From Escherichia coli (GTDB lineage: Bacteria > Pseudomonadota > Gammaproteobacteria > Enterobacterales > Enterobacteriaceae): DNA of 61,695 nt. Shown here piece after piece: positions 43,512 to 43,624 of this stretch. The position numbers were made by a program, and so were the translations under genes. The stretch lies in NCBI RefSeq assembly GCF_003334385.1, contig NZ_QOWN01000027.1; one strand, given 5' to 3'. The notes under the pieces were generated by a model that was not told the origin of the DNA, ran no database searches, and worked only from the letters and a program-made list of their open reading frames with translations. Within the stretch, counting starts at the first letter, position 1; the number at the start of each line of letters is the position of its first letter.

Positions 43512-43624
43512 TATCCGCGATCGCGGATATCGCAGCGTTTATCCCGTAGAGCGGATAAGATGTGTTTCCAGATTGACTTATCCTCACTAAAGGATAAAAC
43601 TTATAATATCCCCTTAAGCGGATA
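43512..43624 (+). promoter_or_regulatory. hipBA promoter with four HipB operators (TATCC-N8-GGATA)
   Basis: TATCCgcgatcgcGGATA 43512..43529; TATCCcgtagagcGGATA 43540..43557; TATCCtcactaaaGGATA 43579..43596; TATCCccttaagcGGATA 43607..43624. TATAAT at 43602..43607. Confidence 0.85.

Follow-up and report, generated by a model that had tools for sequence, protein, structure and literature searches.

The hipBA operon and its described operators

The hipBA operon was the first persistence locus to be described. In Escherichia coli, HipB binds cooperatively to four TATCCN8GGATA operators in the hipBA promoter, bending the operator by 70 degrees, and HipA acts as a co-repressor (PMC3920265). The same TATCC-N8-GGATA consensus is given in PMC3376134, where HipB bound a 48-nt "O1O2" oligonucleotide with a Kd of 0.6 nM, free HipB was degraded by Lon, and binding to operator DNA or to HipA protected HipB. 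The E. coli operators are separated by gaps of 10, 21, and 10 bp, and a one-base overlap between hipB and hipA has been noted (PMC4150777). HipA-HipA contacts within promoter complexes have also been described in the literature, and the G22S change of hipA7 is thought to disturb them.

A related system is known from Shewanella oneidensis (Wen et al. 2014, PMC4150777). Like E. coli, it has four palindromic operators upstream of hipBA, and its HipB binds as a dimer, with HipA joining in a ternary complex. Unlike E. coli, S. oneidensis has GTGTA-N6-TACAC half-sites, sites with an even separation of 34 bp, a fourth operator located within hipB, and a 3-bp interval between the two genes in place of an overlap.

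Here, we analyze a hipBA locus within a 61,695-base stretch of E. coli DNA (hereafter, the window). Compared with the K-12 hipBA region (Black, Irwin and Moyed 1994; Schumacher et al. 2009 and 2015), the DNA is identical from the operators through hipA: the consensus, the four sites, and the 10/21/10 gaps are the same, and nothing differs within the array. Outside the array, the window differs from MG1655 in having an intact autotransporter gene upstream and deletions downstream of hipA. The operator array noted in a preliminary description of this DNA is real, was rightly interpreted, and has already been described in full detail for this very sequence; that reading needs correction on two points, the spacing of the operators, which is uneven, and the promoter geometry, which is non-canonical. 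The array is the established control point of hipBA, and the window represents E. coli chromosome with a wild-type, K-12-type hipBA. Our additions are small, namely allele differences in the −10 region and central gap, and an array period of 27-28 bp that is conserved across genera. These may interest those comparing hipBA regulation between strains, and they leave the accepted picture unchanged.

Identity of the operon and comparison with K-12

Two genes follow the operator array:

43646..43912, + strand: hipB, encoding an 88-aa Xre/Cro-type helix-turn-helix antitoxin and repressor (from translation)
43912..45234, + strand: hipA, encoding a 440-aa Ser/Thr kinase toxin (from translation)

HipB passes the NCBIfam HipB equivalog model NF007271 (183.5 bits, cutoff 79) and matches PDB chains 2wiu_B, 3dnv, and 3hzi over its full length (E 1e-54). 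It is an Xre-type helix-turn-helix protein, and its C-terminal W88 is invariant in nine homologues. HipA residues 1-440 match PDB HipA chains (E about 1e-299), and the HipA N-terminal domain is recognized by TIGR03071 at 103.5 bits (cutoff 27.8). Altogether, the solved structures matched by HipB and HipA, HipA-HipB-DNA complexes among them, include 2wiu, 3dnv, 3hzi, 4yg1, 4yg4, 4yg7, and the 4z5x series.

At the DNA level, window positions 43430-43920 are 100% identical to E. coli K-12 strains. An alignment of 37500-45432 with MG1655 contains two substitutions and one single-base indel (at 37600, 38254, and 41956), all of which fall upstream of the operator array, so that 41957-45432 has zero differences from MG1655. 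The promoter, hipB, and hipA thus all have the wild-type MG1655 sequence, including HipA G22. Among 5426 complete E. coli genomes, 5414 match the 1.9-kb hipBA locus, 4565 of them across 80% or more of it, and in the matching genomes it is annotated as hipB and hipA.

The gene order is that of a type II toxin-antitoxin operon: antitoxin first, toxin second, a one-base overlap, and operators on the promoter. The hipB stop codon TAA (43910-43912) and the hipA ATG (43912-43914) have one base in common (GG-TAATG-CC), in agreement with the TAATG overlap of stop and start reported in the preliminary description. The same description called this a classic autoregulated toxin-antitoxin arrangement, which is supported by the identity with K-12, the HipB equivalog assignment, the PDB matches, and the published four-operator layout. 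We met no evidence contradicting the hipBA identification, and the array is almost certainly the autoregulatory region of hipBA, a type II toxin-antitoxin operon of the E. coli chromosome.

Four operators in two pairs

The operators and the promoter-like hexamers that lie among them are as follows:

43512..43529, unstranded: HipB operator farthest from hipB, TATCCGCGATCGCGGATA, exact motif match
43540..43557, unstranded: HipB operator, TATCCCGTAGAGCGGATA, exact motif match, 10 bp past the distal operator
43573..43578, + strand: TTGACT, −35-like hexamer read from the sequence, directly 5' of operator 43579-43596
43579..43596, unstranded: HipB operator, TATCCTCACTAAAGGATA, exact motif match, 21 bp past operator 43540-43557
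43595..43600, + strand: TAAAAC, alternative weak −10 candidate from hexamer enumeration, overlapping the 3' half-site of operator 43579-43596
43602..43607, + strand: TATAAT, −10-like hexamer read from the sequence, its last T being the first T of operator 43607-43624
43607..43624, unstranded: HipB operator nearest hipB, TATCCCCTTAAGCGGATA, exact motif match, member of the published O1O2 pair

A motif search of the 61,695-base window found exactly four exact copies of TATCC-N8-GGATA, starting at 43512, 43540, 43579, and 43607 and together spanning 113 bp, just as had been described; the window holds no exact copy outside these four operators. From base composition, the window would be expected to hold 0.064 exact sites, and the expected number of four-site clusters within 113 bp is about 2e-14. 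When one mismatch is tolerated, the number of matches rises to six (1.26 expected), a count that none of 100 shuffles reached. The one-mismatch matches at 21925 and 37021 were considered as additional operators and rejected, as they are at chance level; by coordinate mapping, the match at 37021 falls inside lsrK.

The operators had been described as evenly organised, and here the reading fails: the start-to-start distances are 28, 39, and 28 bp, which for 18-bp sites leaves gaps of 10, 21, and 10 bp, and the four operators thus form two pairs. These gaps, counted directly in the window, agree with those given in PMC4150777. The overlap of the last operator with TATAAT does hold, and consists of a single shared base, the T at 43607.

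Comparison with published HipB-DNA data, which had been proposed as a check, bears out the assignment. The reverse complement of the published O1O2 oligonucleotide is found verbatim at window 43578-43625, which identifies the two operators nearest hipB (43579-43596, abutting TTGACT, and 43607-43624) as the published O1-O2 pair. In addition, the 21-mer of PMC3376134 (ACTATCCCCTTAAGGGGATAG) corresponds to operator 43607-43624 with one N8 base altered for symmetry, and, as described above, HipB and HipA match the crystallised chains. HipB binding and repression at these operators can thus be expected from published work with identical DNA.

The distal operator (43512-43529) is a perfect 18-bp palindrome with GATC, a Dam methylation site, exactly at its center. 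To our knowledge, no role has been reported for methylation of this central GATC.

Variation among E. coli alleles

We aligned the K-12 sequence with eight other E. coli alleles drawn from across the identity range. All eight have the same four operators with identical half-sites and the same 10-bp gaps within each pair. Across the nine alleles, variable columns are absent from the half-sites (0 of 40) and present in both the N8 centers (4 of 32) and the flanks (9 of 69, plus one indel); the chance that all 13 variable columns would miss the half-sites is 0.010. All 18 bases of the distal operator are unchanged, while operator 43540-43557 has invariant half-sites and one N8 position (43549) that differs among the alleles.

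This distribution bears on whether the palindromes could be something other than HipB operators, i.e., a chance cluster, the sites of another regulator, or RNA hairpins acting post-transcriptionally. All four sites are palindromic and could form hairpins, and with a start near 43614, part of the hipB-proximal operator would enter the transcript. Any plausible start site, however, is downstream of three of the four operators, and no Rfam family matches the operator region. Half-sites that are fixed while the N8 centers vary form the pattern of a binding site for a dimeric helix-turn-helix protein and not of a stem. Given also the vanishingly small number of such clusters expected and the published binding of HipB to this exact DNA (PMC3376134), we attach almost no credence to a non-HipB origin of the sites, and we continue to treat them as HipB operators.

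The alleles do differ around the promoter-proximal pair. Where K-12 has TATAAT at 43602, the eight other alleles have GATAAT (TGATAATAT), and seven of the eight carry an additional T after TTGACT (after 43578), which gives a central gap of 22 bp compared with 21 bp in K-12. The two differences are separable, occurring apart from each other in strain GPEC1035. In a wider set, 1643 of the 4811 records with a match to the 73-bp stretch 43560-43632 carry the K-12 version; in about two thirds of the matching complete E. coli genomes, GATAAT or TGATAATAT stands in place of TATAAT, mostly with the 22-bp gap. TATAAT thus belongs to a minority, K-12-type allele, which is a mildly new point. A larger claim would be that the promoter-proximal K-12 hip region, as a minority allele, makes K-12 an atypical model for the species, which we consider improbable. 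If it were true, and if basal hipBA expression or cooperativity between the operator pairs changed with the allele, persister frequencies in K-12 would not be transferable to most E. coli.

A natural decay allele was also observed, in E. coli ERL05-0623 (L007, 2570-2610). Its deletion extends from window 43548, inside the second operator, to about the equivalent of hipA codon 85 (44166), with loss of the promoter, hipB, and the HipA N-terminus.

Operators of HipB homologues in other genera

Orthologues were taken from plasmid collection records (the Klebsiella record is about 1 Mb), with loci of roughly 1.1 kb. In other genera, HipB homologues that are 40-62% identical have two to five palindromes, usually 27-28 bp apart. 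HipB identity is 59-62% in Klebsiella, Pantoea, and Enterobacter and 40% in Rahnella, with two to four TATCC-N8-GGATA sites each; in the ~1.1-kb loci searched, these sites occur upstream of hipB only, with neighboring sites mostly 28 bp apart. Klebsiella and Pantoea At-9b have four sites with a strict 28-bp period, Pantoea agglomerans has three, Enterobacter mori has two, and Rahnella has three with less regular spacing (at 343, 398, and 425). The orthologues of these four genera resemble E. coli in their TATCC-N8-GGATA half-sites, in a −35-like hexamer next to an operator, and in the order hipB then hipA. Relative to the even 28-bp period of Klebsiella and Pantoea At-9b, the E. coli array has 11-12 extra central bp, or about one helical turn: 28 bp corresponds to 2.67 helical turns and 39 bp to 3.71.

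More distant homologues, 40-42% identical (Proteus L013, Aeromonas L014, and Salmonella L016), have three to five 18-bp palindromes with changed half-sites. The half-sites are TAACC..GGTTA or GGATA in the Salmonella IncFIB plasmid and TAC-type in Proteus, and the array period is 27 bp in the Aeromonas and Salmonella IncFIB plasmids and 28 bp in Proteus. The half-site therefore varies with the HipB homologue as the 27-28 bp period is retained. Since the period is kept across genera while half-sites change, an array at ~27-28 bp is the conserved property of the family. The comparison points to an ancestral layout of evenly spaced operators, one of them adjoined by TTGAC(T/A), as read from these sequences.

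The retained period may reflect contacts between neighboring HipA-HipB complexes. This raises the question of whether the chief function of the array is to build up a higher-order complex of HipA, HipB, and DNA in which HipA molecules on neighboring operators would dimerise and block each other's active sites; the array would then be a scaffold that sequesters toxin no less than a site of repression. The persistence of the 27-28 bp period across genera despite changes in half-site fits a constraint on protein-protein contacts between neighboring complexes, and HipA and HipB structures are available (4yg7 and related entries). On the other hand, one chromosomal array has room for only a few HipA molecules, and such a scaffold is compatible with autorepression, making it an addition to repression rather than a replacement. 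We judge the chances of a major scaffold role to be roughly even, and autorepression stands in either case.

Promoter hexamers

A consensus scan of 43350-43950 found no canonical sigma-70 pair, defined as a 16-18 bp spacer with each hexamer matching at least 4 of 6 positions; a terminator scan of the same interval also found nothing. The spacer from TTGACT is 23 bp to TATAAT and 16 bp to TAAAAC. For TATAAT itself, the best upstream partners, TTATCC at 18 bp and TATCCT at 17 bp, both fall within operator 43579-43596. With TTGACT 23 bp from TATAAT and no canonical pair at 16-18 bp, any assignment from sequence of the hexamers that form the hipBA core promoter, and with it the exact geometry of promoter occlusion, is provisional.

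One candidate assignment places the core promoter at TTGACT (43573-43578) with the weak −10 TAAAAC (43595-43600) instead of TATAAT. Operator 43579-43596 would then fill the spacer and the fourth operator would lie at or after the start; the sites would still be HipB operators, with a different occlusion geometry. The two pairs score equally against consensus, TTGACT-16-TAAAAC at 5+4 and TTATCC-18-TATAAT at 3+6, each 9 of 12. Comparative evidence favors the first: a −35-like hexamer, TTGAC(T/A), TTGATT, or TTTACT, adjoins an operator in the Klebsiella, Pantoea, Enterobacter, and Rahnella orthologues. In Rahnella, TTGATT-16-TATAAT occupies the same position relative to an operator as TTGACT-16-TAAAAC, again with the operator filling the spacer, and the interval between the last two Klebsiella operators contains no TATAAT-like hexamer. 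Within the species, the eight other alleles lack the T of TATAAT. As this T is confined to the K-12 allele, TATAAT cannot be a conserved core element. However, TAAAAC does not end in the T that is conserved in −10 hexamers, and TGATAATAT in the non-K-12 alleles could serve as an extended −10 at the TATAAT position. On balance, we regard a TTGACT/TAAAAC core as possible but rather unlikely. The hip start site is said to have been mapped by Black in 1994.

Upstream of the operators, there is one further candidate element:

43483..43495, + strand: weak IHF-consensus-like site, CATCAACGCCTTA, one mismatch to WATCAANNNNTTR

An IHF site upstream of hip is mentioned in PMC3376134. In the window, there are 102 one-mismatch matches to the IHF consensus, and by alignment, the stretch around this site (~43472-43490) is replaced or deleted in other E. 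coli lineages. Because such matches are frequent and the stretch is missing elsewhere in E. coli, we do not count 43483-43495 as evidence, and it is doubtful that it belongs to the hipBA control system.

Model for control of hipBA

In the model that follows, the position, spacing, and conservation of the sites and the identity of genes and DNA with the K-12 locus were computed here; binding, cooperativity, bending, co-repression, and degradation by Lon come from the literature. Each 18-bp palindrome would take one HipB dimer, with one helix-turn-helix per TATCC/GGATA half-site, and the DNA would be bent. The four operators would be filled cooperatively, and HipA would join as HipA-HipB2-HipA, acting as co-repressor. 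The proximal operators appear to cover the core promoter, one lying between TTGACT and the −10 region and the other extending from the −10 across the likely start. Their occupancy would keep RNA polymerase off and so maintain a low, self-limiting level of hipB and hipA. This holds for either choice of hexamers, since the two proximal operators cover the core promoter in both, and the proximal pair thus probably represses by promoter occlusion.

At the level of translation, the one-base TAATG overlap probably couples hipA to hipB. Degradation of free HipB by Lon relieves repression and can free HipA; HipA inactivates glutamyl-tRNA synthetase, leading to dormancy.

Neighborhood of the operon

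Upstream of hipB, the autotransporter gene at 38003-43423 (1806 aa; ECSE_1600 family; yneO in K-12) is an intact open reading frame. The MG1655 copy, annotated as a pseudogene, carries an additional G (MG1655 1594132, after window 41956). Past the autotransporter stop codon, 43430-43460 contains a perfect 11-bp inverted repeat; its RNA fold has a 13-pair stem (−22.2 kcal/mol, z −3.9) and is terminator-like, without a T-run.

Downstream of hipA, the window is missing yneL, ydeT, and the greater part of ydeS and ydeR that are present in MG1655. The alignment leaves MG1655 at 1590656 (window 45432) and resumes in a 56-bp piece of ydeS; a second jump, at about 45484, leads to the ydeR 3' end, after which come ydeQ and ydeP. 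Against complete RefSeq E. coli genomes, 45150-46000 aligns as three separate pieces in every listed match, and it is covered to at least 80% in only 25 of these genomes. Elsewhere in the window, two Rfam families score above their gathering scores, both on the + strand: the Hfq-binding sRNA STnc560 at 13974-14186 (275.9 bits) and IS009 at 2383-2581 (226.8 bits).
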